DNA of 64,000 nt. It comes from an uncultured Bacteroidales bacterium. GTDB lineage: Bacteria > Bacteroidota > Bacteroidia > Bacteroidales > P3. Positions 15,791 through 26,319 of this stretch are shown piece after piece (within the stretch, counting starts at the first letter, position 1; every line of letters starts with the position of its first letter). Below the pieces are notes generated by a model. It was not told the DNA's origin and ran no database searches. It worked only from the letters and a program-made list of their open reading frames with translations. The position numbers were made by a program, and so were the translations under genes. Location of the stretch: contig ONGA01000011.1 of the NCBI GenBank assembly GCA_900317285.1, positions 4,107 through 68,106 on the forward strand, written 5' to 3'.

Positions 15791-16465
15791 CTACAGCACC
15801 GAGACGATAGCGGCATCAACCTCGCCCCTCTTGACCGTGGGTTCGAAACGCTTGACCACCTTGCCGTCACGACCAATGAGGAACTTGGTAAAATTCCATT
15901 TGATGTCGGGGTTCTGGTCGTAGAGGCTGTCCTCGGCACGGAACATACGGTCAAGGTAGGCACCTATGCCGTCTGTGGTGTCGAAGCCGCCGAAGGGGGC
16001 CTGCTCCTTGAGCCATACATAAAGCGCTTGGGCGCTGTCGCCGCCCACCTCAATCTTGGCCATCTGAGGGAAGGTGATGTTGTAGGTGCCTGTACAGAAG
16101 GCGTGTATCTCGTCATAGCTGCCGGGAGCCTGCTCGCCAAACTGGTTGCAGGGGAAATCCAGCACCTCGAAACCACGGTCGTGATACTTGGCATAGAGCT
16201 GCTGCAGCTCCTCATACTGAGGGGTGAAACCGCACTGTGTGGCCGTGTTCACCACCAGCAGCACCTTGCCCTGATAGTCGCTCAGGCTTACCGTGTCGAG
16301 GTTGCCGTTGAGGACCGAGAACTGATAGATGTTGTCCGTGTCCGCCACCACCGGCTCTGACTTCTGTTTGCAGCCGACCGTCATCATCGCGGCCGCCAAA
16401 AGGATGAAGAAAGTCCAGTGGACTTTCGATAGCGAAGCGGAGAATAATAGTTCAGATTTCTTCAT
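15791..16465 (-). CDS. gpx: glutathione peroxidase family lipoprotein
   Basis: 224 aa. NTATQCGFTPQ and FPCNQFGEQ motifs. Signal ending MTVGC. Confidence 0.85.
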   Translation of the reverse strand: MKKSELLFSASLSKVHWTFFILLAAAMMTVGCKQKSEPVVADTDNIYQFSVLNGNLDTVSLSDYQGKVLLVVNTATQCGFTPQYEELQQLYAKYHDRGFEVLDFPCNQFGEQAPGSYDEIHAFCTGTYNITFPQMAKIEVGGDSAQALYVWLKEQAPFGGFDTTDGIGAYLDRMFRAEDSLYDQNPDIKWNFTKFLIGRDGKVVKRFEPTVKRGEVDAAIVSVL

Positions 16466-16720: not shown

Positions 16721-17335
16721 TTAGTCTATATATGATACATAGTTACCTCTGACGCACTTCCATCTGCCGTTTTCAAGGAGTGTGACAGTATCACCATAAA
16801 CGCCATCTATCTTATCGCCATTTTTGTCCACGGCATACCAGTAACGGCCTTGCTTGATTAGGAAACAACCGTTCCAGAACATGAAAGGGCTTTCGTTAGA
16901 ATAACACTCCACTTTACGACCGGAACAATGGTAGATGTCCCAAGAACCGGAACTGCGTTGGATCGTTACATAACCATAAGGGAAATAATATATTTCCTTA
17001 CCGTAGATGCCATCAACCAAATCTCCGTTCTCGTCGGCGAGATACCAAGTCTTGCCTCGTCTTACGCGGTAATAGCCGTTATAGAGGAGGTTAATTTCAT
17101 CACCGTAAAGGATAGAGCTATTGTTGCGGTAGATATAGACCGTACGTGCGGATGTCTTTACATAACAACCATTCCATAAATCTTGATAATTGTCGGTGCA
17201 GGCCACAGCTTTTCGGGTGGTCACTTCATGTCCCGTATTCTCAAAGTGCAGATTGTAATTATCGGATACTACATACTGCGCCTGCGTGGCTGCCAGGCAA
17301 GCCATCATCACTGCGGCTAATAATATTTTCTTCAT
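16721..17335 (-). CDS. secreted repeat protein (WG-repeat-like), low-GC gene
   Basis: 204 aa. Signal peptide. Internal repeats YYRVRRGKTWYLADENGDLVDGIYG and FLIKQGRYWYAVDKNGDKIDGVYG. By eye GC is lower than in the neighbours. Confidence 0.55.
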   Translation of the reverse strand: MKKILLAAVMMACLAATQAQYVVSDNYNLHFENTGHEVTTRKAVACTDNYQDLWNGCYVKTSARTVYIYRNNSSILYGDEINLLYNGYYRVRRGKTWYLADENGDLVDGIYGKEIYYFPYGYVTIQRSSGSWDIYHCSGRKVECYSNESPFMFWNGCFLIKQGRYWYAVDKNGDKIDGVYGDTVTLLENGRWKCVRGNYVSYID

Positions 17336-17568
17336 ATTTATTCTGTTTGTTTCTGATTAGTATCCATTTCCAAAACACCTCGTTGCTCCCTCGCGAAACA
17401 ATATTTCATTTCTTACACCATTAAGAACGCCAACTCCTTGAAGATATTGCCCCTGACAGAAACAAAAATTGCCGCAACTATGTGGCAGAGAGAGGCAATT
17501 GAATTAAAAACAAAGCGGAAAGTCCCCTAACTATTGCCCTCAGGATTGTGGCATTTGCGGAAAAGTTG

Positions 17569-17576
17569 TATCTTTG
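17569..17576 (+). promoter_or_regulatory. -7 promoter box (TATCTTTG)
   Basis: gttgtatctttgcagc, 12 nt upstream of ATG 17588. Confidence 0.5.
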
Positions 17577-17587
17577 CAGCCCGAAAG

Positions 17588-17914
17588 ATGAACCGATTAT
17601 TGCGACATATTGCGCCTTTTTTATTGTTGGCCAGCTATTTGCCAATGGTGGTGCTGTCGTCGCTGCATGTGCATCACGAGACAATTGACGCCCATGACGA
17701 CTGCCAGCAATGTGTCGGACATATAGAAGAGGCTCATCATCACGACCACGACTGCCTTTATTGTTCCTTCCTTAGCCTGAACTATCTTGTTCAGGGAGAC
17801 GGGCAGACGATGGAAATCATCCCCACCGTGGAGTGCTTCGCCACGCCGACACCGGACATCGTGCCGCAGCTCCAACACGGGATGGTCCAGTTGAGGGCTC
17901 CGCCAGCGGCGTAG
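17588..17914 (+). CDS. small His/Cys-rich exported or membrane-anchored protein (DUF2946-like metal-binding candidate)
   Basis: Start MNRLLRHIAPFLLLASYLPMVVLSSLHVHHETIDAHDDCQQCVGHIEEAHHHDHDCLYCSF. One N-terminal TM or signal segment. Two CxxC motifs and 10+ His. Confidence 0.55.
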   Translation: MNRLLRHIAPFLLLASYLPMVVLSSLHVHHETIDAHDDCQQCVGHIEEAHHHDHDCLYCSFLSLNYLVQGDGQTMEIIPTVECFATPTPDIVPQLQHGMVQLRAPPAA

Positions 17915-18000
17915 TTCCCCCTTTACATTATATATAGTTTTTCTAGTATTTCCAGTTTTTCTGGAATTGCTGGTGTATTTATCATTTAGCATTATAAATA

Positions 18001-20055
18001 ATGAAGAAGATAATCATCACAATCATATCGTTATTGCCGTTGATGGCTGCGGCGCAGAGCCATCATGACACGGTACGTCTGCGCCAGGTGGTGGTAACTG
18101 CCACGCAACACGCCACTTCGCGTAGCGAGGCTCCCACGGCGGTGGGTGTGGTCGACGACAAACAGATGGAGGCCGTGAACGCCGTCAATCTCGGCCATGC
18201 TTTGAACTTCAGCACCGGCCTGCGGGTGGAAAACACCTGCCAGAACTGTGGTGCCAACGAGGTGCGCATCAACGGTCTCGGGCAGGCCTACTCGCAGATT
18301 CTCATCGACAGTCGTCCGGTAAACAGCGCGCTGGCGGGTGTCTACTTGCTCGACCAGCTGCCGACAGCCTTAATCGACCGCATCGAGGTGCTGCGCGGCG
18401 GTGGCTCGGCACTATATGGCAGCAACGCCATTGCCGGCGTCATCAACGTCATCACCCACGAACCGCACTCAAACGGCGCCAGCGTCGGCAACGCCACCAC
18501 CCTTATTGGTGGACGGAGCTGGGATTTTAGCAACTCGTTCAATGCATCCGTGGTTACCGGCGACCGTAGTGCCGGCATCGCCGTCTTTGGCCACAACCGG
18601 AGCCGAGAGCCATACGACCATAATGGCGACGGCTATTCGGAGGTAGGCCAGCTCAAGGCCCGCATGGTGGGCTTCCGTGGCTACCTGCGCACCACCGACT
18701 TCTCGAAACTCAACCTCGAATACCACAATATCCACGACTTCCGCCGCGGTGGCGACCGCTTCGACCAGCCTTCACCCATGGCCCACATCAGCGAGGGTGG
18801 CGAGCACGACATCCATTGCGCCAACCTCAAATGGGATTGGCTGCCCGCCAGCGGCTTGCGCCATGCCTCGCTCTTTGCCTCAATGCAGCATGTTGACCGC
18901 CAGAGCTACTACGGCGAGCGCGACGATAGCGAGCCCTTTGGCACCGCTTACGGTTATACGAAGGATCTGACACTCAACTACGGGGCTATTTACAGCCGTC
19001 ATTTCGACACCCTGTGGTTCATGCCTGCCGAGCTGACTTTCGGCGTCGAGCATACCTTCGACCGCCTGCGGGACCACACCTTCGGCAGTCCCGACACCTT
19101 GTACCAGAACATTGGCATCTTGAGTGCCTACATGCAGAACGAGTGGAAGAATAGCAAATGGAGCATCCTGATAGGGGCACGCATGGACAAACACACCATG
19201 ATTGAAGCACCCGTGGTGAGTCCGCGCCTCAATCTGCGCTACGCCCCCAGCGACCACCTCACCCTTCGCGCCGGCTACGCTTCGGGCTTCCGCGCACCGC
19301 AGGTGTACGACGAAGACCTGCATGTTGGTGCCGTCAATGGGGAGCTCTACAAGATTACCAACGCCCCTGACCTCCGCATGGAGCGGTCACATTCGCTCAC
19401 CGGCTCGGCCGACTTCTGCTTCCACCTCGGCAGCCTCGAGGCAGACCTGCTTGTCGAGGGCTTTTATACCCGCATCAACGATGCTTTTGTTAACGAACTG
19501 CTTTTCGACGACACTGCCAGTGGATATATTCACTATGAGCGCCGCAACGCCGACGGTGCTGAGGTGATGGGTCTCAATGTTGAGATGACCGTCTCTCCCA
19601 TAGAATCCATGCGTCTGCAGCTAGGCGGCACTTGGCAGCGTAGCCTCTATACCGGTCAGGGAAAAGAATGGGACGAGGGCCGGTTCGAGCGCCGCATGGA
19701 ACGTACTCCCGACCTCTACGCCTACCTCACCGGCATCTATACCCCCGTCAGACGTTTGCAACTCACTGCCACCGGCATCTTCACCGGTCCCATGCTGGTG
19801 TATCATAACGTGGCCACCGCCACTGGCACCGAGGCGGAGAAGGTCATCACCGACTCTTTTCTCGACCTCTCGTTCAAGGCCGCCTACAGCATCCCCTTTG
19901 GCGAAAGCACAGAACTGGAGCTCAGCGTCGGTGTGCAGAACATCCTAAACAGCTATCAACGCGATCTCGACAGCGGCGTCGAGCGCGACGCCGCCTATAT
20001 CTACGGGCCCTCGTTGCCCCGTTCTCTTCTCTTTGGCGCCAAACTGAGTATCTAA
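18001..20055 (+). CDS. TonB-dependent outer-membrane receptor
   Basis: 684 aa. Signal peptide. Plug region (VVVTATQHATSRSEAPTAVGVV; IDRIEVLRGGGSALYGSNAIAGVINVIT). Beta-barrel C-terminus. Confidence 0.9.
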   Translation: MKKIIITIISLLPLMAAAQSHHDTVRLRQVVVTATQHATSRSEAPTAVGVVDDKQMEAVNAVNLGHALNFSTGLRVENTCQNCGANEVRINGLGQAYSQILIDSRPVNSALAGVYLLDQLPTALIDRIEVLRGGGSALYGSNAIAGVINVITHEPHSNGASVGNATTLIGGRSWDFSNSFNASVVTGDRSAGIAVFGHNRSREPYDHNGDGYSEVGQLKARMVGFRGYLRTTDFSKLNLEYHNIHDFRRGGDRFDQPSPMAHISEGGEHDIHCANLKWDWLPASGLRHASLFASMQHVDRQSYYGERDDSEPFGTAYGYTKDLTLNYGAIYSRHFDTLWFMPAELTFGVEHTFDRLRDHTFGSPDTLYQNIGILSAYMQNEWKNSKWSILIGARMDKHTMIEAPVVSPRLNLRYAPSDHLTLRAGYASGFRAPQVYDEDLHVGAVNGELYKITNAPDLRMERSHSLTGSADFCFHLGSLEADLLVEGFYTRINDAFVNELLFDDTASGYIHYERRNADGAEVMGLNVEMTVSPIESMRLQLGGTWQRSLYTGQGKEWDEGRFERRMERTPDLYAYLTGIYTPVRRLQLTATGIFTGPMLVYHNVATATGTEAEKVITDSFLDLSFKAAYSIPFGESTELELSVGVQNILNSYQRDLDSGVERDAAYIYGPSLPRSLLFGAKLSI

Positions 20056-20099
20056 AAAATACCGCCGCAAGGGCTTCGCGCTCTTGCGGCGGTATTTTT
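20055..20099. terminator. bidirectional intrinsic terminator (TBDR / radical SAM convergent pair)
   Basis: A-run, ATACCGCCGCAAG ... CTTGCGGCGGTAT, then T-run. Confidence 0.8.
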
Positions 20100-20135
20100 A
20101 GTGCGGAAAGGAGCCTATTGGGTCGGTCCCCATTT

Positions 20136-21215
20136 TTAATTTATCATGGCTTCCACCTCGTCGCGGTGTTCGTAGAGGGTGCAGCCGCCGGTATGTTCCC
20201 ATCCCAGGGCACGGGCATTGCGAATCTTATGGAATAGGGGAGAGGTGATGGCGGCACGGAGGCCGTCGCGGGCGGCATTGGTGTCGCTGTAGGGCGAGAA
20301 GGGACAGGGCTCGGCACTGCCGTCGGGACCTATGTGGAAAAATCCGCGTCCCGCGGCCATACAGCCGTCGAGGACTTTTTCGTCGCCAGGGAAGCTGAGG
20401 AAAATCATGCCCTTGTACTGCCCGCGCCGCTGCTCCACTATCTGTTCCATCTCGGTCACATGCTCGTCACGGAAGGCCAGATGCTCTGTCGTCTCATCGA
20501 AGGGGACATACTCCACATAGAACACCAGTCGGCACCCCAGCTCGGCTAGGTGAGAGAGGAAGGCCTCGGAGGTCACCTCGTGGTAGTTCTCCGTTGTGAC
20601 GGTGATGCTGGTGCCGAAGAAGAGCTTCTCCTTGTGCAGCATCTCCATCGAGAGCAACGCCCGCTGGTAGACCCCGTTGCCACGCCGCTCGTCGGTGGCC
20701 GCCATCTCGCCCTCGAGGCTGATGACGGGGATGAGGTTGAGGTTGCGTTTGAAGAACTCCGTGTACACCGCGCCAATCATCGTGCCGTTGGTGAAGACGG
20801 GGAAGATGATGTCGCCCGTAGCGGCAGCAGCCTCCAGGATGGCACGTTGCGTCAACGGTTCGCCGCCTGCCAGCAGGCAGAAACTGATGCCTAGCTCGGC
20901 GGTCTCGTGGAAGATGGTCTCCCACTGTTTGGGCGTGAGCGTCTCTTTCGCGGGCGTGTCACTGGCGATGCCGTTCTTGCGGGCATAGCAGCCTTTGCAT
21001 TGCAGATTGCAGGTGGTGGCAATGCTGGCAATGAGAAACGGCGGCACAGCGACACCCTCTTTCTCAAGGTACGCCTTGCGCCGCCGTTCGGCTTTGCTGA
21101 TGGTGCGTTGCATCTTGGTCACGAAGCGCGTCTCGCGCGGATTGCCCAGCACGTTGAGGTAAGCCGTTGCCATGATGTTGCGGATGCTCTCCGCCATGTG
21201 TGCACCTAGGTCCAT
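20136..21215 (-). CDS. radical SAM enzyme with N-terminal extension and C-terminal Cys-containing (twitch/SPASM-like) region
   Basis: CxxxCxxC in ATTCNLQCKGCYA. GGEPL motif. C-terminal GCMAAGRGFFHIGPDGSAEPC...GGCTLY. Start set at MDLGAH (ATG 21213-21215), because the track's start at 21266 would overlap the upstream small ORF. Confidence 0.8.
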   Translation of the reverse strand: MDLGAHMAESIRNIMATAYLNVLGNPRETRFVTKMQRTISKAERRRKAYLEKEGVAVPPFLIASIATTCNLQCKGCYARKNGIASDTPAKETLTPKQWETIFHETAELGISFCLLAGGEPLTQRAILEAAAATGDIIFPVFTNGTMIGAVYTEFFKRNLNLIPVISLEGEMAATDERRGNGVYQRALLSMEMLHKEKLFFGTSITVTTENYHEVTSEAFLSHLAELGCRLVFYVEYVPFDETTEHLAFRDEHVTEMEQIVEQRRGQYKGMIFLSFPGDEKVLDGCMAAGRGFFHIGPDGSAEPCPFSPYSDTNAARDGLRAAITSPLFHKIRNARALGWEHTGGCTLYEHRDEVEAMIN

Positions 21216-21219
21216 GGTA

Positions 21220-21393
21220 TTATTGTGCCGGTGCCCACTTGCAGCGGACGGGCGAGACGATGGCACCTTCTTTCTTCAGGGCGTCGAAGGCTTTGTCGAC
21301 CTCCTTGCGGTCAGCGTTGAGCATCTTGGTGACATCCCCAGCGGAAACGGGTTTGCCAGCTTCGCGCATGGCTTGTAAAACTTTCTCTTTCAT
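21220..21393 (-). CDS. 57-aa winged-helix-like small protein (absent from the ORF track because it is under 60 aa)
   Basis: Manual translation: MKEKVLQAMREAGKPVSAGDVTKMLNADRKEVDKAFDALKKEGAIVSPVRCKWAPAQ. ATG is 3 nt after the ferritin-like stop; its own stop is 4 nt before the rSAM ATG. GC3-rich codon usage like the neighbours. Confidence 0.65.
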   Translation of the reverse strand: MKEKVLQAMREAGKPVSAGDVTKMLNADRKEVDKAFDALKKEGAIVSPVRCKWAPAQ

Positions 21394-21396
21394 GGC

Positions 21397-21858
21397 TTAC
21401 ATCATTGCAGTTAAGAAATTCTCGTAGCCGAGTTTTTTGATGTAGTTGAGGTACTGCGCCTCCCAGGCCATGTGGTCCTTCTCGCCTTCGATCCATTTCT
21501 GGATGAGCTTCTGGGTGATGTAGTCGTCGGCGAAGGCGGCGGCCATCTCGTTCATCATTTTTATGGCCTCGGGGTTATAGTCGCTCTCAATCTGCTTCTT
21601 CGGGTCGTCGTAGAAGGGGAACTCCTCGGTCTTCATCAGCTTCTGCAACTCAGCGGGCTTATAGCCAAGTTCCACCAGACGGTTGAGTACCTCTTCGGCC
21701 TCGTCCCATTCCTCTTCGGCTTCCTCTTTCCATTTGTCGGCCAGTTTGTTCCAGCCCTGCATGCGGCAATAGGCCGAGAAGGCGAAATGCTGTTTGCTGT
21801 TACCGAACCAACCAGCGCCAAGCATGGCGAAATTCTTCAAAGCTTCTTTTTTTGTCAT
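21397..21858 (-). CDS. divergent ferritin-like four-helix-bundle protein
   Basis: 153 aa. By-eye alignment to FtnA: ...ADKWKEEAEEEWDEAEEVLNRLVELGYKP... and ...KWIEGEKDHMAWEAQYL.... Several canonical di-iron ligand positions are substituted. Confidence 0.5.
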   Translation of the reverse strand: MTKKEALKNFAMLGAGWFGNSKQHFAFSAYCRMQGWNKLADKWKEEAEEEWDEAEEVLNRLVELGYKPAELQKLMKTEEFPFYDDPKKQIESDYNPEAIKMMNEMAAAFADDYITQKLIQKWIEGEKDHMAWEAQYLNYIKKLGYENFLTAMM

Positions 21859-21901
21859 AATTGCAACGATTTTAAACGGTTAATAAAAATATTTAACTGT
21901 A

Positions 21902-22348
21902 TTATTTTAATCTTTTCAAACCCTCAATCAATTTGTCGAGCGTGGGGATCATCGTCAGAATTTCCTCCTCCTCGCCCGTCTTCAGAGCCACATCGCGACT
22001 GAGACAGCTGGGGATGGGCTTCGCCTGCATGTAGAGGTCCTTGCCCTTCTGGGTCAGTGAGACAATGCGCTGGCGTGTGTCCTCTTTGCCCTTGGTACGG
22101 ACAATCAACCCCGACTTCTCCATGCGTTGCAGCAATGGCGTCACTGTATTGGTGTCGAGCAGCAACTTCTTGGCGATGTCGCATACCGGCTGCCGGTCCT
22201 GTTCCCAGAGCACGAGCATCACAAGATACTGGGGGTAGGTGAGGCCCAGCGGGTCGAGATAAGGGTGGTATGCACCCATTGTGAGTCGTGCTGCCGTGTA
22301 GAGTCGGAAGCAGAGTTGGTTTTCCAGTTTTAGTTGATTTTCAGTCAT
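21902..22348 (-). CDS. ohrR: MarR-family regulator of the OhrR (organic hydroperoxide sensing) type
   Basis: 148 aa. LENQLCFRLYTAAR with the conserved sensing Cys. wHTH LTYPQYLVMLVLWE...IAKKLLLDTNTVTPLLQRMEKSGLI. Confidence 0.8.
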   Translation of the reverse strand: MTENQLKLENQLCFRLYTAARLTMGAYHPYLDPLGLTYPQYLVMLVLWEQDRQPVCDIAKKLLLDTNTVTPLLQRMEKSGLIVRTKGKEDTRQRIVSLTQKGKDLYMQAKPIPSCLSRDVALKTGEEEEILTMIPTLDKLIEGLKRLK

Positions 22349-22392
22349 CTAAATTATGTCAGATGGTATTCTTATTTATGTCGTTCACGATG

Positions 22393-22422
22393 CAAAAATA
22401 CAAAATAAATTTATATCGCAAA
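22393..22422 (-). promoter_or_regulatory. promoter of the ohrR operon: -7 TATTTTTG, -33 TTTG, with the palindrome ATAAATTTAT in the spacer
   Basis: -7 box at 22393-22400, palindrome at 22405-22414, -33 at 22419-22422 (all read on the minus strand). ATG at 22348. Confidence 0.45.
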
Positions 22423-22456
22423 CGATTTATCTAATTTTTTAATAAAAATTAACGTA

Positions 22457-22858
22457 TCAAAGTACCTCGATGAACACCTCCGGCAGGTAGACATTTTCCA
22501 ACGCGAGGGCTTCCTTGAAGAGGGGAGCGACCTCCTGTGGTGTATAGCCGGCGATGCCGCAGCCCACGGCGGTGACCAGGAACGTCAGCTCGGGGTGCTG
22601 CTTGGCGCAGGCGATGAAGTGTTTGACTGCCGCCTTCAGCGAGGCTTCGCCCTCCATGGTGGGAAGGGCGTAGGTGCGGCCCGTAAGTCCTTCGCCGACA
22701 CCCCATTCGGCACCGAACTGCTTGTGCGCAAACCACGCGGCACCGCCGCCGTGGGCACCCTGGATGTTGCTACCGAAGACAAAAATCTCGTTCTCGCCGA
22801 GTTCGGTGATGTTGTCCGACGCCACGCGGCGCCCACCAATAATCTGAGTGTTTTTCAT
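22457..22858 (-). CDS. conserved 133-aa protein with IFVFGSN...G.HGGGAA...YALPT motifs (resembles the family NCBI names A1S_2505 phage non-structural protein)
   Basis: Motif recognition from memory only. No signal peptide. Confidence 0.45.
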   Translation of the reverse strand: MKNTQIIGGRRVASDNITELGENEIFVFGSNIQGAHGGGAAWFAHKQFGAEWGVGEGLTGRTYALPTMEGEASLKAAVKHFIACAKQHPELTFLVTAVGCGIAGYTPQEVAPLFKEALALENVYLPEVFIEVL

Positions 22859-22886
22859 AATCGTAAATGTTTTGGATTTCCGACTG

Positions 22887-22894
22887 CAAAATTA
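22887..22894 (-). promoter_or_regulatory. -7 promoter box (TAATTTTG)
   Basis: ctgcaaaattacgaaa, 29 nt upstream of ATG 22858. Confidence 0.45.
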
Positions 22895-22900
22895 CGAAAT

Positions 22901-22932
22901 AATGTTTAATGTTTAAAGTTTAATGTTTAAGG
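22901..22932. repeat. GTTTAA word-stutter repeat
   Basis: aatgtttaatgtttaaagtttaatgtttaagg. Confidence 0.7.
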
Positions 22933-22947
22933 AATGGAAAAAAAGTG

Positions 22948-22955
22948 TATCTTTG
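22948..22955 (+). promoter_or_regulatory. -7 promoter box (TATCTTTG)
   Basis: gtgtatctttgcagtg. It overlaps the track's start at 22945, so the real start is ATG 22963. Confidence 0.5.
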
Positions 22956-22962
22956 CAGTGCG

Positions 22963-23463
22963 ATGGTGATGCATATCGATGATATTAAAGCGCTGGCTAA
23001 GAGCGCGCACGGCGATGCTGGGGTGCGTGAGCGGCTGTTTGCGACCCTGCTGGATGCGCAGACGTCCTCGTCTGCCATAACGCCATCCCATGCCGCCTGG
23101 GCGCTGACGCACCTCCCCAAGGAGGACAATATATATATAAATATGTATCGCGCGCGATTGGTGCAGCTCGCCATCTCCACCCCCGAGGTGCCGCTGCGGC
23201 GCCTCTCCATGGTGCTCCTCGAGAGGCTGGAGTGGGGGAGGGACGACGTGCGCACCGACCTGCTCGACTTCTGTCTCGAGCACATGATGCTCGCCGACGA
23301 GCCCTACGGCGTCAAGGCCCTCTGCATAAAACTCGCCTACCGGCAGTGCCGCCACTACCCCGAGCTCTGTGCCGAGCTCAAGCAGAGCCTCCTGCTCATG
23401 GAGCCCTCCGAACTCGGCGCCGGAGTGAAACACACCCGCGAAAAAATTCTCAAGCTGCTATGA
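22963..23463 (+). CDS. helical-repeat (HEAT/AlkD-like) hypothetical protein
   Basis: ~166 aa, predicted all-alpha. Stop overlaps the next gene's ATG (ATGA). Confidence 0.45.
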   Translation: MVMHIDDIKALAKSAHGDAGVRERLFATLLDAQTSSSAITPSHAAWALTHLPKEDNIYINMYRARLVQLAISTPEVPLRRLSMVLLERLEWGRDDVRTDLLDFCLEHMMLADEPYGVKALCIKLAYRQCRHYPELCAELKQSLLLMEPSELGAGVKHTREKILKLL

Positions 23464-24119
23464 CTATACAGGAACGACTCTTTGCTCTGCGCGACGAAAC
23501 CTATGCCGCCTTCTCCGCCAAGCTCATCCCCACCGTCGAGCCCGACCGCTTCATCGGTGTGCGTTCGCCACAGCTGCGTGCTATCGCCAAAGAGTTGAAA
23601 AACAACGCGTCAGAGTTTCTCTCGGCTTTGCCGCACCGTTATCACGAGGAGAATATGCTCCACGCCTACCTGCTCTGCGTCGGCAGCGATTATGCGACTG
23701 TCGTCGAGCAAACGGAGCGCTTCCTGCCCTTCGTCGACAACTGGGCCGTCTGCGACTCGCTGGCGCCCCGCGCCTTCGCCCGCCACAAGGCGGAGCTGAT
23801 GCCGCGAATCGAAAAGTGGATGTCGGCAGAGCACGAATACACCGTGCGCTTCGGCATCGGCACCTTGATGCGCCACTACCTCGACGCCGACTTCCAGCCG
23901 GAACACCTCCGCCGCGTCGCCGAAATTCATCGCAACGAATACTATATCAAGATGATGCAGGCGTGGTACTTCGCCACCGCCCTCGCCAAGCAGTGGGACG
24001 CCACGCTTCCCATGCTCGACTCGCTCGAGCCCTGGGTCCGTGCCAAATCCATACAGAAAGCCATCGAAAGCTTCCGCGTCAGCCCCGACCACAAGACCCT
24101 GCTCAGAACCTTGCGCTGA
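23460..24119 (+). CDS. DNA alkylation repair enzyme family protein (AlkD-like HEAT-like repeats)
   Basis: Start MTIQERLFALRDETYAAFSAKLIP.... Motifs IGVRSPQLRAIAKEL and DNWAVCD typical of the PF08713-type family. The upstream part of track ORF 23232.. is out-of-context Arg-rich sequence. Confidence 0.7.
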   Translation: MTIQERLFALRDETYAAFSAKLIPTVEPDRFIGVRSPQLRAIAKELKNNASEFLSALPHRYHEENMLHAYLLCVGSDYATVVEQTERFLPFVDNWAVCDSLAPRAFARHKAELMPRIEKWMSAEHEYTVRFGIGTLMRHYLDADFQPEHLRRVAEIHRNEYYIKMMQAWYFATALAKQWDATLPMLDSLEPWVRAKSIQKAIESFRVSPDHKTLLRTLR

Positions 24120-24122
24120 CGC

Positions 24123-24851
24123 TCACTCCCGCGGCACCGTCTCCGGAGCCTCAGTCTCCCGCGAATCTATTATAACTATCGAATCCTTCGCCTCTGTCTC
24201 CCCGGTCCCAACCATCGTGATGTCAGAATCATTCGGCGATTCGGAAGCGGGCAACTCGAAGTCTACCAGGTACTTGCTGTTGGAGATACGCCCCTGGCGA
24301 TCCTCCACCACAGCCCACACATGCTCGTAGCCCTCGGGCAGCAGAAAGGCGGCATGCTTCGCGCGGCGCTCCGCCGAGCCCAGCTTGCAGCAATGGCGCT
24401 CCGACTCCGAGTAGGCGTAGAAATGCACCTTGTCGTCGGCCTTCGCGCCGCTCACCATCAGGTTCTTCTCCCAGCGCGCCTCCAGGCTCCCGCCCTCGCG
24501 CACCACCGCCGTGAAGTCCACCATGGGTACCGCTCCCACGCTGACTTTCAGCTCGCTAAGCTCTGGCATCGCGTCGCGCCGCCAGTTGGTCTTCACGAAG
24601 GCATTGCCCTCCGTCATCTCCCACAGCTGCGCCTGCGAGCGGAAGCCCACCTTCAGCACCGGCAGCAGCGACGACGCCAGCCGCACAATCTCCTTGAACA
24701 TCATGCGGTGCGCCACCTGCCGCTCCGTGCGCGGATTGCACACCTGGTGCGGCAGTCGCCGCACCACCCATTTGCTACCCAGCCGGTAGCCTACCACGGG
24801 ACCGACACGTCCCTCGAATCCTCCCAGGATTCCCTGATAAATCTTCGCCAT
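24123..24851 (-). CDS. hypothetical protein (DUF6266-like, Bacteroidota-restricted)
   Basis: Start MAKIYQGILGGFEGRVGPVVGY. Acidic C-terminal tail. Family name is from memory. Confidence 0.45.
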   Translation of the reverse strand: MAKIYQGILGGFEGRVGPVVGYRLGSKWVVRRLPHQVCNPRTERQVAHRMMFKEIVRLASSLLPVLKVGFRSQAQLWEMTEGNAFVKTNWRRDAMPELSELKVSVGAVPMVDFTAVVREGGSLEARWEKNLMVSGAKADDKVHFYAYSESERHCCKLGSAERRAKHAAFLLPEGYEHVWAVVEDRQGRISNSKYLVDFELPASESPNDSDITMVGTGETEAKDSIVIIDSRETEAPETVPRE

Positions 24852-25069
24852 GATTCTGAGTGTTTTACGATTCCCCGCCAGCAGTCTCCCGCTCGCGGAC
24901 AAGAGTCTTTTTCTATCTCCAATAACTGCCTTGCCGCCGAAAAATTGCCTCCCGCTCCACATTTATTTATCAACACTATCGTATCCCTAGCGTAAAGTAC
25001 TGGAAAGGATAGCGATACCCTAGGTTGCTCTATCCTTAGGCTATATATACTCTATGGGTAGGCTATTAA

Positions 25070-25390
25070 CAAAGGAATGGAACAGGGGGAAGGGGGAGGG
25101 CAGAGGGGTTTGAAAACAGATAGTGTATAAATAAGGAATGGATTGGGAACTGGTGGAGGGAGAGGGGAGAATGGATTGGACGGCGATGGCGGGAAAGGGG
25201 AACGATGAAAATAGGAGAGGGGAGAATGGATTGAAAGCTGATGGAGAGAAAAGGGTGGAGGAATGGCGGAGGGAGGATGGGAAATTCGAATCCGGGGAGA
25301 GGGGTGGGAGGTGGGAAATGGGGGAGGGGAGAAATCGACGCTGAGCGATTTTCTCCTCAATCTGGGACGCCAGGTGGGTCAAGGGGGAGA
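25070..25390 (+). repeat. ~320-bp homopurine (G/A) tract with multiple G-quadruplex motifs and GGAGAATGGATTG words
   Basis: The plus strand is almost free of C/T runs. PQS at 25085-25108 (G5 aa G5 a G3 caga G4) and 25294-25329. GGAGAATGGATTG at about 25165 and 25219. Confidence 0.85.
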
Positions 25391-25418
25391 TATGCGATTA
25401 GAAGCGATTTTTTGCGTT

Positions 25419-25814
25419 TTACATTTGTATAACGAATCAGGTAATTTACTATATTTACAATTGTAATTTTATACTCTTTTCGATACATTTACAATTGTAA
25501 TCAGTAGAATTCTGTAAAAATTGTTAAATATGCTGCTTTTGCCTTTGTTTAAAATATCTCATGATTAATAATCAGTATATTATGTATAACATTTAAAGTG
25601 ATTATTTAAGATTATGGGCACTTCGAGCGATGGTTTAATGCAGATTGAGTGATTACTATTAAATTCAAATATATTAATGTTTTATGCTACGTTAATTAAA
25701 GTAAAGGTTGTTATGGTTAAACTGGTTACAAATGTAATATTGTTAAATGGTGTTTTGTATGTCAAAAATTATGTGTACATTTGTAAAACCAAAAATTGGA
25801 TATTACAATTGTAA
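25419..25814. promoter_or_regulatory. array of 12-bp palindromes TTACAATTGTAA (3 perfect, 3 variant) upstream of the XRE-type regulator
   Basis: Perfect copies at 25455-25466, 25489-25500 and 25803-25814. Variants: TTACATTTGTAT 25419-25430, TTACAAATGTAA 25726-25737, GTACATTTGTAA 25775-25786. Confidence 0.6.
25776..25783 (+). promoter_or_regulatory. -7 promoter box (TACATTTG) overlapping a variant palindrome
   Basis: 36 nt upstream of ATG 25819. Confidence 0.4.
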
Positions 25815-25818
25815 GAAT

Positions 25819-26319
25819 ATGATAAACAGGATAAATCTTATTTTGCGGGCGAAAAATATCACCGCAAAACAGTTTGCAGAGGAGATCGGAATCCAGCCCT
25901 CCGGAATGTCGCATATTTTGAGTGGTCGAAACAACCCCAGTCTGGAGTTTGTCAGCAAGGTTATCCGCCGCTACCCCGAGATTGACGCCAACTGGCTGCT
26001 GCTGGGCAAGGGTGAGATGTATGGGCAATTGGGAAGCAGGAATCAGGAATCAGGAATGAGGGAGGAGGAATCCTTGTCCGAACCCACGCTCTTTTCGGCG
26101 CCTTTGCCGGCGCCTGCGCCCCTACCCGAGCCGGAGGAAGCTGTGGAGGAACAGGAAATCCGTGAGGAGTGTGATTTGCAGGATTTGCCGGATTGTGTGA
26201 GTGAGGAGCGCGGGCAGGAGAAAAAGGAACCTGCGCCTATCAAGCATGACGGGCGCAGGATGGTGAAGATTCTGATGTTCTACGACGACCACACTTTCGA
26301 GGAGTATCGTCCGCTTTAG
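25819..26319 (+). CDS. XRE-family helix-turn-helix regulator (Bacteroidota type with a conserved C-terminal domain)
   Basis: Start MINRINLILRAKNITAKQFAEEIGIQPSGMSHILSGRNNPSLEFV. C-terminal RRMVKILMFYDDHTFEEYRP. Confidence 0.75.
   Translation: MINRINLILRAKNITAKQFAEEIGIQPSGMSHILSGRNNPSLEFVSKVIRRYPEIDANWLLLGKGEMYGQLGSRNQESGMREEESLSEPTLFSAPLPAPAPLPEPEEAVEEQEIREECDLQDLPDCVSEERGQEKKEPAPIKHDGRRMVKILMFYDDHTFEEYRPL
26033..26072. repeat. 7-bp AGGAATC stutter repeat in frame inside the HTH gene
   Basis: gaagcaggaatcaggaatcaggaatgagggaggaggaatc encodes GSRNQESGMREEES. Confidence 0.75.

Follow-up and report, generated by a model that had tools for sequence, protein, structure and literature searches.

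We analysed a 64,000-nucleotide stretch of DNA from an uncultured rumen Bacteroidales bacterium (contig ONGA01000011.1; this whole stretch is referred to here as the window), in which four closely spaced genes on the minus strand encode a MarR regulator of the OhrR type, a bacterioferritin-like (Bfr-like) protein, a small winged-helix protein of 57 amino acids (wH57) and a radical SAM enzyme (rSAM). The genes and the elements that flank them are as follows, with the evidence for each assignment in brackets.

21902..22348, minus strand: OhrR-subfamily MarR repressor, 148 aa (PF01047, NF052638, PDB matches, conservation of Cys13)
21397..21858, minus strand: bacterioferritin-like four-helix-bundle protein, 153 aa (PF00210, alignments with Bfr and with orthologues)
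21220..21393, minus strand: wH57, a stand-alone minimal winged-helix protein, 57 aa (AlphaFold2 model, Foldseek, sub-threshold Pfam matches to winged helix-turn-helix families)
20136..21215, minus strand: twitch-like radical SAM enzyme, 359 aa counted from an ATG (PF04055, Foldseek, conserved Cys residues)
22380..22426, minus strand: promoter and operator block with putative OhrR operators (phylogenetic footprint of about 57 nt)
20056..20098, no strand assigned: bidirectional intrinsic terminator hairpin (folding z-score, terminator scan)
18001-20055, plus strand: TonB-dependent receptor gene, convergent with the rSAM gene

The coordinates of the four open reading frames (ORFs), and the gaps of 43, 3 and 4 nt between them, agree with those given in an initial annotation of this DNA. 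The longest rSAM ORF begins at a GTG at 21266, within the wH57 gene, but the conservation of D2 and L3 in homologues leads us to prefer the ATG at 21215 as the start. Public gene calls in the same species place the start at Met7, giving a protein of 353 aa, and rSAM relatives of 375 aa probably start at an upstream codon similar to the GTG in the window. The terminator hairpin lies 37 nt beyond the rSAM stop codon and has a 16-bp outer stem, two inner pairs, and A and U runs on its flanks. A 91-nt stretch that includes the hairpin has a folding energy of -39.1 kcal/mol (z = -5.8 relative to shuffled sequences). The hairpin is also listed in a terminator scan, and it serves the operon as well as the TonB-dependent receptor gene that converges on it. 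An Rfam scan of positions 17000-26000 found no riboswitch and no other RNA family. From the tight spacing, the single conserved promoter block and the single terminator we infer that the four genes, which look like one operon, are co-transcribed; many other assemblies from this species show an identical gene order.

Promoters of Bacteroidetes carry the -7 consensus TAnnTTTG. The match to it reported upstream of the MarR gene in the initial annotation is present (TATTTTTG, 22400-22393), and it is kept as TA(C/T/A)TTTTG across seven orthologous upstream regions, in which about 57 nt are almost invariant and the flanks are divergent. The palindrome that had been singled out in the promoter spacer, ATAAATTTAT at 22414-22405, is not conserved, and relatives have ATAAAAATAA at this position. 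Two other dyads lie within the invariant block. The upstream dyad, ATCGTTTGCGAT (22426-22415), overlaps a -33-like TTTG and has the conserved form ATCG(C/T)TTGCGAT; the downstream dyad, ATCGTGAACGAC (22391-22380), is positioned just 3' of the -7 box and has the conserved form ATCGTGAACGA(T/C). Both correspond to ATCG-N4-CGA(T/C) and together they flank the -7 box, a layout expected for repressor binding, and the footprint suggests that they are OhrR operators.

The regulator itself matches the MarR family PF01047 (53.7 bits, cut-off 24.6), and its best NCBIfam match is the OhrR model NF052638, at 137.2 bits and under the cut-off of 200; this model has the short name TransRegOhrRVib and was apparently built on Vibrio sequences. 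The OhrR signature proposed for this protein is present as KLENQLCFRLY, and the closest solved relatives are OhrR proteins, with best PDB matches to 2pfb (Xanthomonas), 2pex and 1z91 (Bacillus) at E values of 1e-29 to 8e-28. Cys13 aligns with the sensing residue Cys22 of Xanthomonas campestris OhrR in the PDB alignment, which provides an independent check on an alignment of MarR proteins with reference OhrR sequences, and the sensing Cys is invariant in all 40 aligned MarR proteins linked to rSAM genes. Nearly all of the rSAM-linked MarR proteins of Bacteroidales have a second Cys near position 116-125, which suggests an OhrR of the 2-Cys type, with Cys116 as the candidate resolving residue in the window protein. 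Neither the operon nor the set of recurrent neighbours at 81 rSAM loci (described below) includes an Ohr/OsmC gene, and in relatives a gene for a glutathione peroxidase (GPx), a thiol peroxidase, stands in its place.

The second gene product is a member of the ferritin superfamily with an altered metal site. It matches PF00210 (50.3 bits, cut-off 24.5) and falls below the cut-off of the bacterioferritin model TIGR00754 (34.6 bits, cut-off 125.6); 40 Bfr or ferritin sequences in the PDB are matched at E values up to 0.1, 30 of them at <1e-3, with the best Bfr chains at 1e-6. In the Bfr alignment, in which the numbering is offset by one, E18 is replaced by Trp17, Met52 by Trp51 and H54 by Glu53, so that the loss of ligands initially noticed by comparison with FtnA holds in this alignment also, and the positions of E51 (Glu50), E127 (Glu126) and H130 (His129) are retained. 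The position of Bfr E94 is occupied by E, D, N, K or T in orthologues and does not appear to be under ligand constraint. The alignments thus indicate a degenerate ferroxidase centre and loss of the heme-ligand Met. An acidic stretch, KWKEEAEEEW(D/E)EAEE, is strongly conserved, and close relatives of the protein are annotated by NCBI as 'hypothetical protein'.

In other genomes the same operon slot is filled by a second Bfr-like subfamily (e.g. L002:4123-4578, L055:8547-9002 and L182:3350-3805), which shares about 20-27% identity with the window protein. Its members retain E18, E51, the heme-ligand Met52 and E127, and have Trp in place of H54 and Leu in place of H130; they are thus without either ferroxidase His. 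One locus (L070) has two copies.

The 57-aa ORF had been described as resembling a winged helix-turn-helix protein, and structure prediction agrees with this: the AlphaFold2 model (pLDDT 78) has three helices in a winged-helix-like fold followed by a C-terminal tail. All Pfam matches to winged helix-turn-helix families are sub-threshold, and Foldseek returns Z-alpha, Lrp-N and BirA-N folds with no match at E < 0.1. We found 1954 homologues, and those listed and aligned are 82-93% identical, with an invariant C-terminal tail of SPVRCKWxP; the records include Paludibacteraceae, Muribaculaceae and Bacteroidaceae. When compared in the same loci, wH57 is more conserved than the rSAM (86-91% versus 63-65% identity). 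The small protein moves between AraC- and MarR-controlled operons, and its conservation is well above that of its neighbours.

The rSAM matches PF04055 (40.8 bits, cut-off 29.5), and its cluster motif CNLQCKGC (C69-x3-C73-x2-C76) is invariant, with a conserved AGGEP motif. The three C-terminal Cys residues and the N-terminal extension of about 55 aa, both pointed out in the initial annotation, are features of the family: Cys285, Cys304 and Cys345 are invariant throughout, and the extension is kept down to about 32% identity. A fourth residue, Cys228, is invariant among the Bacteroidales proteins; across the wider family about half of the members have it. These three residues, with or without Cys228, fit a single auxiliary cluster in a twitch-like domain. 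The SPASM model PF13186 scores 15.1 bits with the window protein, against a cut-off of 21.5, and is passed by two relatives (P0246 and P0255). In the AlphaFold2 model (pLDDT 77, pTM 0.82) the N-terminus forms a hairpin of two long helices (residues 3-21 and 26-53), such that the extension is predicted to be a helical hairpin and not the recognition element (RRE) of enzymes acting on ribosomally synthesised and post-translationally modified peptides (RiPPs).

The nearest proteins of known structure by Foldseek and phmmer are SkfB, SuiB, PqqE, CteB, BlsE, anSME, viperin and MoaA, with SkfB, SuiB and PqqE first in Foldseek (query-normalised TM 0.51-0.64). Sequence and fold searches of the PDB return only generic SPASM/twitch relatives. 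For the window protein and 10 distant relatives no curated Pfam or NCBIfam family assigning a function to the rSAM is above its cut-off, in keeping with the earlier statement that the operon maps to no known pathway. Assignment as AhbD, AhbC or NirJ was rejected, the scores of 60, 53 and 56 bits (cut-offs 500, 650 and 515) covering only the generic core at residues ~59-229. At E < 1e-30 the family comprises 372 clusters at 50% identity. Four distant members (P0388, P0364, P0337 and P0362) have no CX3CX2C motif and retain the C-terminal Cys region, and may be pseudo-radical-SAM proteins.

When genomes were scanned with each species represented once, 80 further rSAM loci were returned at 63-92% identity, or 81 with the window. 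All 80 belong to Bacteroidales/Prevotellaceae of the rumen or gut, among them Xylanibacter ruminicola and several Prevotella isolates. Neighbouring gene families were defined by clustering of ORFs and each family was then re-detected by tblastn. The most frequent are GPx (50/81 loci), MarR (46/81), Bfr-like (40/81), a flavodoxin-like protein with weak similarity to BilS (34/81) and wH57 (31/81), followed by a metallo-beta-lactamase (MBL)-rubredoxin protein (21/81), AraC (18/81), ZIP transporters (15/81), FMN reductase (11/81), PNPOx-like proteins and rubredoxin (10/81 each), nitroreductase (9/81), PhzF (8/81), superoxide dismutase (SOD; 6/81) and DoxX (5/81); 78 of the 81 loci contain at least one of these families. 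The gene immediately upstream of the rSAM is MarR at 27 loci (usually after GPx), wH57 at 12 and MBL-rubredoxin at 9, and the gene immediately downstream is flavodoxin-like at 28. The commonest core is GPx-OhrR-rSAM(-flavodoxin-like), in which the stop codon of GPx directly adjoins the start codon of MarR or overlaps it. OhrR-rSAM pairs with no other attached genes also exist, and Prevotella sp. khp7 (L045) has the order GPx-OhrR-DoxX-nitroreductase-c25-rSAM, where c25 is an 86-aa ORF with no Pfam match. Further cultured carriers are Prevotella sp. P6B1 (L042), Bacteroidales KHT7 (L062) and Xylanibacter ruminicola D31d (L038) and Ga6B6 (L051).

MarR, Bfr-like, wH57 and rSAM genes occur together at only 8 of the 81 loci and the families are shuffled, and for this reason the quartet in the window is one permutation of a mosaic and not a fixed unit. 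The description of a 'tightly coupled' operon thus does not extend across genomes, and conservation of the downstream genes as neighbours, by which the initial annotation proposed to judge the coupling, is largely lacking at the frequencies given above.

Two side observations concern these neighbours. A cluster present at 21 loci (c7_313; e.g. L183:4287-5228) encodes a 313-aa protein of unusual architecture, in which an AiiA-like MBL-fold hydrolase with an HxHxDH motif is fused to a C-terminal rubredoxin, and its gene is often next to that of the rSAM or wH57. The window also contains a GPx-like gene (15794-16402, minus strand) whose product is 39% identical to the GPx preceding OhrR-rSAM in relatives; it lies on the far side of the TonB receptor gene, at a distance of about 3.7 kb, and the operon itself has no GPx.

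When the neighbourhoods are viewed from the side of wH57 a different arrangement emerges, AraC<>Bfr-like-(PNPOx)-wH57-MBL(-rubredoxin), with a divergent AraC gene and no rSAM within 4 kb (L182-L189). A Muribaculaceae locus (L086) has AraC<>Ferritin-PNPOx-wH57-ZIP, and in Paludibacteraceae (L081-L085) wH57 is the last gene of an AraC-linked operon of flavodoxin, aldo-keto reductase, iron-containing alcohol dehydrogenase (Fe-ADH), CMD-cupin and esterase genes. The pairing of OhrR with rSAM recurs, for its part, in one very distant contig, where an rSAM 34% identical to that of the window has an OhrR-like MarR gene 17 nt upstream (181 bits to NF052638) and a sigma-54 activator, TM1266 and HydF as neighbours. 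Because of this recurrence we take the OhrR-rSAM link to be real, and it appears undescribed. The window operon is then best described as [OhrR ... rSAM] with [Bfr-like-wH57] inserted between, and the regulator of the cargo genes appears to be interchangeable, MarR in some genomes and AraC in others.

These distributions bear directly on the proposal, made in the initial annotation, that the genes form a single coupled module, with one of the small partners being matured or modified by the rSAM. In its most explicit form the rSAM would modify the Bfr-like protein or wH57, or wH57 would act as a discrete peptide-recognition element for the enzyme. The 3- and 4-nt gaps in the window, the position of wH57 immediately upstream of the rSAM at 12 of the 81 loci, and a fold nearest to RiPP- or protein-modifying SPASM/twitch enzymes (SkfB, SuiB, PqqE and anSME) speak for dedicated maturation. 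Against this, wH57 is absent from 50 of the 81 rSAM loci and the Bfr-like protein from 41, both are found in rSAM-free operons including their own AraC-linked module, and there are OhrR-rSAM pairs with nothing else attached. A partner far more conserved than the enzyme itself is also at odds with it, as is the lack of an RRE domain in the rSAM, and we consider dedicated maturation highly improbable. A general role as a RiPP maturase was rejected likewise, given that no RRE is present, no small ORF is conserved across the 81 loci and a further 80 from environmental metagenomes, and wH57 is not consistently linked.

In the wider family the rSAM is found in more varied settings. Relatives follow ffh-rpsP-khpA in a Firmicute-like contig (L088), precede transketolase and rsmG (L091), or lie between a cell-shape gene cluster and rplM-rpsI (L096). 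Among 54 immediate neighbours at the 80 environmental loci there are five GNAT, three flavodoxin_5 and three ferredoxin genes, with several flavodoxin-like matches, and no dominant rSAM partner was seen there. A rubredoxin-rSAM fusion (P0120) supports a link to electron donors. A second fusion, of a MutT-like NUDIX domain to the rSAM (P0243), is a single cluster on three contigs (L100:6001-7482 and L101:5129-6610 are examples) with thioredoxin, rhodanese, pyridine-nucleotide disulfide oxidoreductase and ApbE genes as neighbours; in B. thetaiotaomicron a GPx gene adjoins a NUDIX gene (BT3968-72; PMC10434189). Other long forms of the rSAM were set aside as gene-call extensions or chimeras, and pyridoxal phosphate-dependent (PALP) enzymes adjacent to it in three distant contexts belong to three different subfamilies (TrpB-like, CysK-like and diaminopropionate ammonia-lyase) and are attributed to coincidence. 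Across the wider family the rSAM thus looks like a stand-alone gene with electron carriers as its sole recurring helpers, and from this pattern we argue for a widespread cellular substrate and not a RiPP or a neighbour-encoded target.

Taken together, these observations make it fairly probable, in our judgement, that the four genes form an oxidant-stress operon joining two independently conserved modules. The first would be the OhrR-type thiol-switch repressor with the twitch-type rSAM, seen in most relatives as GPx-OhrR-rSAM(-flavodoxin-like), and the second the Bfr-like protein with wH57, found elsewhere under a divergent AraC with PNPOx-like and MBL(-rubredoxin) genes. Derepression by an oxidant, suggested in the initial annotation, is still the best reading of the regulation given an OhrR-type regulator, a sensing Cys invariant in 40 MarR proteins and redox-stress neighbours. 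In the model that we propose for the inducing signal, the operators and the roles of the cargo proteins, reduced OhrR dimers would occupy the two ATCG-N4-CGA(T/C) dyads around the -7 box until an organic hydroperoxide, or a related oxidant or electrophile, oxidises Cys13. Resolution of the oxidised residue, probably by Cys116, would release the repressor, and the four genes would then be transcribed as a single unit that ends in the hairpin at 20056-20098. The most likely role of the Bfr-like protein would be that of a metal buffer or of a non-catalytic bacterioferritin-type subunit, and wH57 would assist the Bfr-like/PNPOx/MBL module by binding nucleic acid or protein. With electrons from flavodoxin-like or rubredoxin partners, the rSAM would act on a widespread cellular substrate and not on the products of the neighbouring operon genes. 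Its induction would serve either to restore a modification or cofactor damaged by oxidants or to replace rSAM molecules that oxidants have destroyed. As a matter of judgement alone, a small molecule or cofactor seems the leading candidate for this substrate, a protein and the sum of other targets are level with each other somewhat behind, and RNA comes last; our confidence in each is far lower than in the composite nature of the operon.

Several considerations weigh against this interpretation. Radical SAM enzymes are among the most oxygen-sensitive kinds of enzyme, and it is counter-intuitive to place one under an oxidant-induced regulator. OhrR binding and induction at this operon are predictions, and the dyad motif is not enriched by itself, with 2 matches in the window compared to 1.28 expected; it is too short for significance, so that the operator assignment is carried by the phylogenetic footprint. 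The closest relatives of the rSAM, at loci L001 and L020 (91-92% identical), have no detectable MarR in the upstream stretch, which is <1 kb for L001. Outside Bacteroidales the rSAM is mostly without a MarR and has heterogeneous or housekeeping neighbours, and its link to stress may be lineage-specific. Proteins of the OhrR type are also able to sense electrophiles such as quinones, and the trigger may not be peroxide.

Electrophile sensing is the starting point for a different explanation, that the operon serves detoxification of electrophiles or xenobiotics such as plant quinones and phenolics, with the rSAM transforming a diet-derived small molecule using electrons from flavodoxin-like proteins or rubredoxin. 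The rumen source of the DNA is in keeping with this, and the recurrence of nitroreductase, FMN reductase, PhzF, AiiA-like MBL hydrolase and DoxX, as well as the presence of wH57 at the end of the flavodoxin/aldo-keto reductase/Fe-ADH/CMD-cupin/esterase operon, could be understood in the same way. We nonetheless consider it unlikely, as the rSAM family is present in many non-rumen environmental metagenomes and in housekeeping contexts, and the GPx, SOD, rubredoxin and ferritin-like genes indicate reactive oxygen instead.

The operon could also function in metal or heme homeostasis, with iron stored by the Bfr-like protein, a tetrapyrrole processed by the rSAM, and a tie to the adjacent TonB-dependent receptor. 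The best NCBIfam scores of the rSAM are to AhbD, NirJ and AhbC (60-52 bits), the TonB receptor gene at 18001-20055 is convergent with the operon, ZIP transporters are encoded at 15 of the 81 loci, and PNPOx-like genes recur, the PNPOx fold family including heme-degrading enzymes of the HugZ type. The NCBIfam scores are, however, 8-12x under their cut-offs and cover the generic rSAM core only, a TonB receptor of this family is beside the rSAM at just 3 of the 81 loci, the ferroxidase site of the Bfr-like protein appears degenerate, and the regulator is OhrR-type and not Fur-type. These points make a role in metal or heme homeostasis quite improbable, less probable than xenobiotic detoxification.

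Returning to the composite oxidant-stress operon, a further and rather doubtful step would be to regard the OhrR-linked twitch-like rSAM family (~370 clusters at 50% identity, in anaerobe-rich metagenomes) as a new class of oxidative-stress enzyme, switched by peroxide, fed by flavodoxin-like proteins or rubredoxin, and repairing or re-synthesising a cofactor, a lipid or a macromolecular modification damaged by oxidants. The Bfr-like protein and wH57 would at the same time make up a new ferritin module of a non-ferroxidase kind, with wH57 as its small DNA- or protein-binding partner. If true, the new rSAM class would extend the OhrR/GPx regulon to radical chemistry. Oxygen and peroxides are met regularly by strict anaerobes in the rumen and gut, whose defence genes are only partly known; an rSAM repeatedly wired to OhrR and GPx, and accompanied by electron carriers of its own, suggests either a repair or re-maturation reaction that has gone unrecognised or a deliberate strategy of replacing a vital Fe-S enzyme, and both ideas are testable in cultured Prevotella. 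The locus also illustrates how tight gene spacing in one genome can mimic a 'pathway' even though the genes are members of a shuffled pool of stress genes.

Elsewhere in the window, positions 25070-25390 (plus strand), about 320 nt, are rich in purines (G/A) and apparently non-coding. The sequence GAGAGGGGAGAATGGATTG occurs there twice (at ~25161 and ~25206), and Tandem Repeats Finder reports no tandem array. An AT-rich region follows, upstream of an ORF of 190 aa with an XRE-like helix-turn-helix (25747-26319).

The system most similar in its regulation is OhrR-Ohr of Xanthomonas campestris and Bacillus subtilis. In both cases a MarR repressor has an N-terminal sensing Cys in QLCFxLY, a C-terminal resolving Cys of the 2-Cys type (probable here), and a gene placed with its presumed targets. 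The difference is in the cargo, which in the window lacks the Ohr/OsmC peroxidase and consists of the rSAM, the Bfr-like protein and the small winged-helix protein, with GPx as the usual thiol peroxidase partner in relatives. MarR and radical SAM genes are also paired, to judge from the model name, in the NCBIfam 'radical SAM mobile pair system' (TIGR04470-04472), but the window MarR scores 44.1 bits to TIGR04472 against a cut-off of 240, the window has one rSAM, and neither protein of the pair is among the 25 best NCBIfam matches of this rSAM.

The rSAM resembles SPASM/twitch enzymes (SkfB, SuiB, PqqE, anSME, BtrN, MoaA and AhbD/NirJ), which provide its best fold and sequence matches, in the CX3CX2C core, the GGE motif and an apparently comparable Cys-rich C-terminal region following a partial TIM barrel. 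It differs in its number of auxiliary Cys residues: a SPASM domain has 7-8 and a twitch domain fewer, and the three conserved family-wide, or four with Cys228, would accommodate one cluster. It differs further in its family-specific 55-aa predicted helical hairpin in place of an RRE, in having no precursor peptide next to it, and in reaching no family cut-off. The Bfr-like protein shares with bacterioferritin its length, the register of the four-helix bundle and the equivalents of E51, E127 and H130, and departs from it in the E18 to Trp, H54 to Glu and Met52 to Trp substitutions and in the variable E94 position; the comparison extends to Bfr/Ftn shells that are heteropolymers and include catalytically inactive subunits (e.g. 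PDB 9bts).

A conceptual parallel is offered by RlmN of Enterococcus faecalis, reported to be sensitive to reactive oxygen (PMC10336011) and likewise a radical SAM enzyme with an Fe-S cluster and an activity linked to oxidative stress. RlmN belongs to an unrelated rSAM subfamily, and for the window enzyme an RNA substrate is hinted at only weakly, by gene context in other phyla (the rSAM follows ffh-rpsP-khpA in L088). In a full-text literature search neither the pairing of OhrR with a radical SAM enzyme nor this rSAM family was found described. There is precedent for the regulator, for the fold classes and for an OhrR regulon as such; what is new is the cargo, a twitch-like rSAM together with a seemingly non-ferroxidase Bfr-like protein and an ultra-conserved miniature winged-helix protein.

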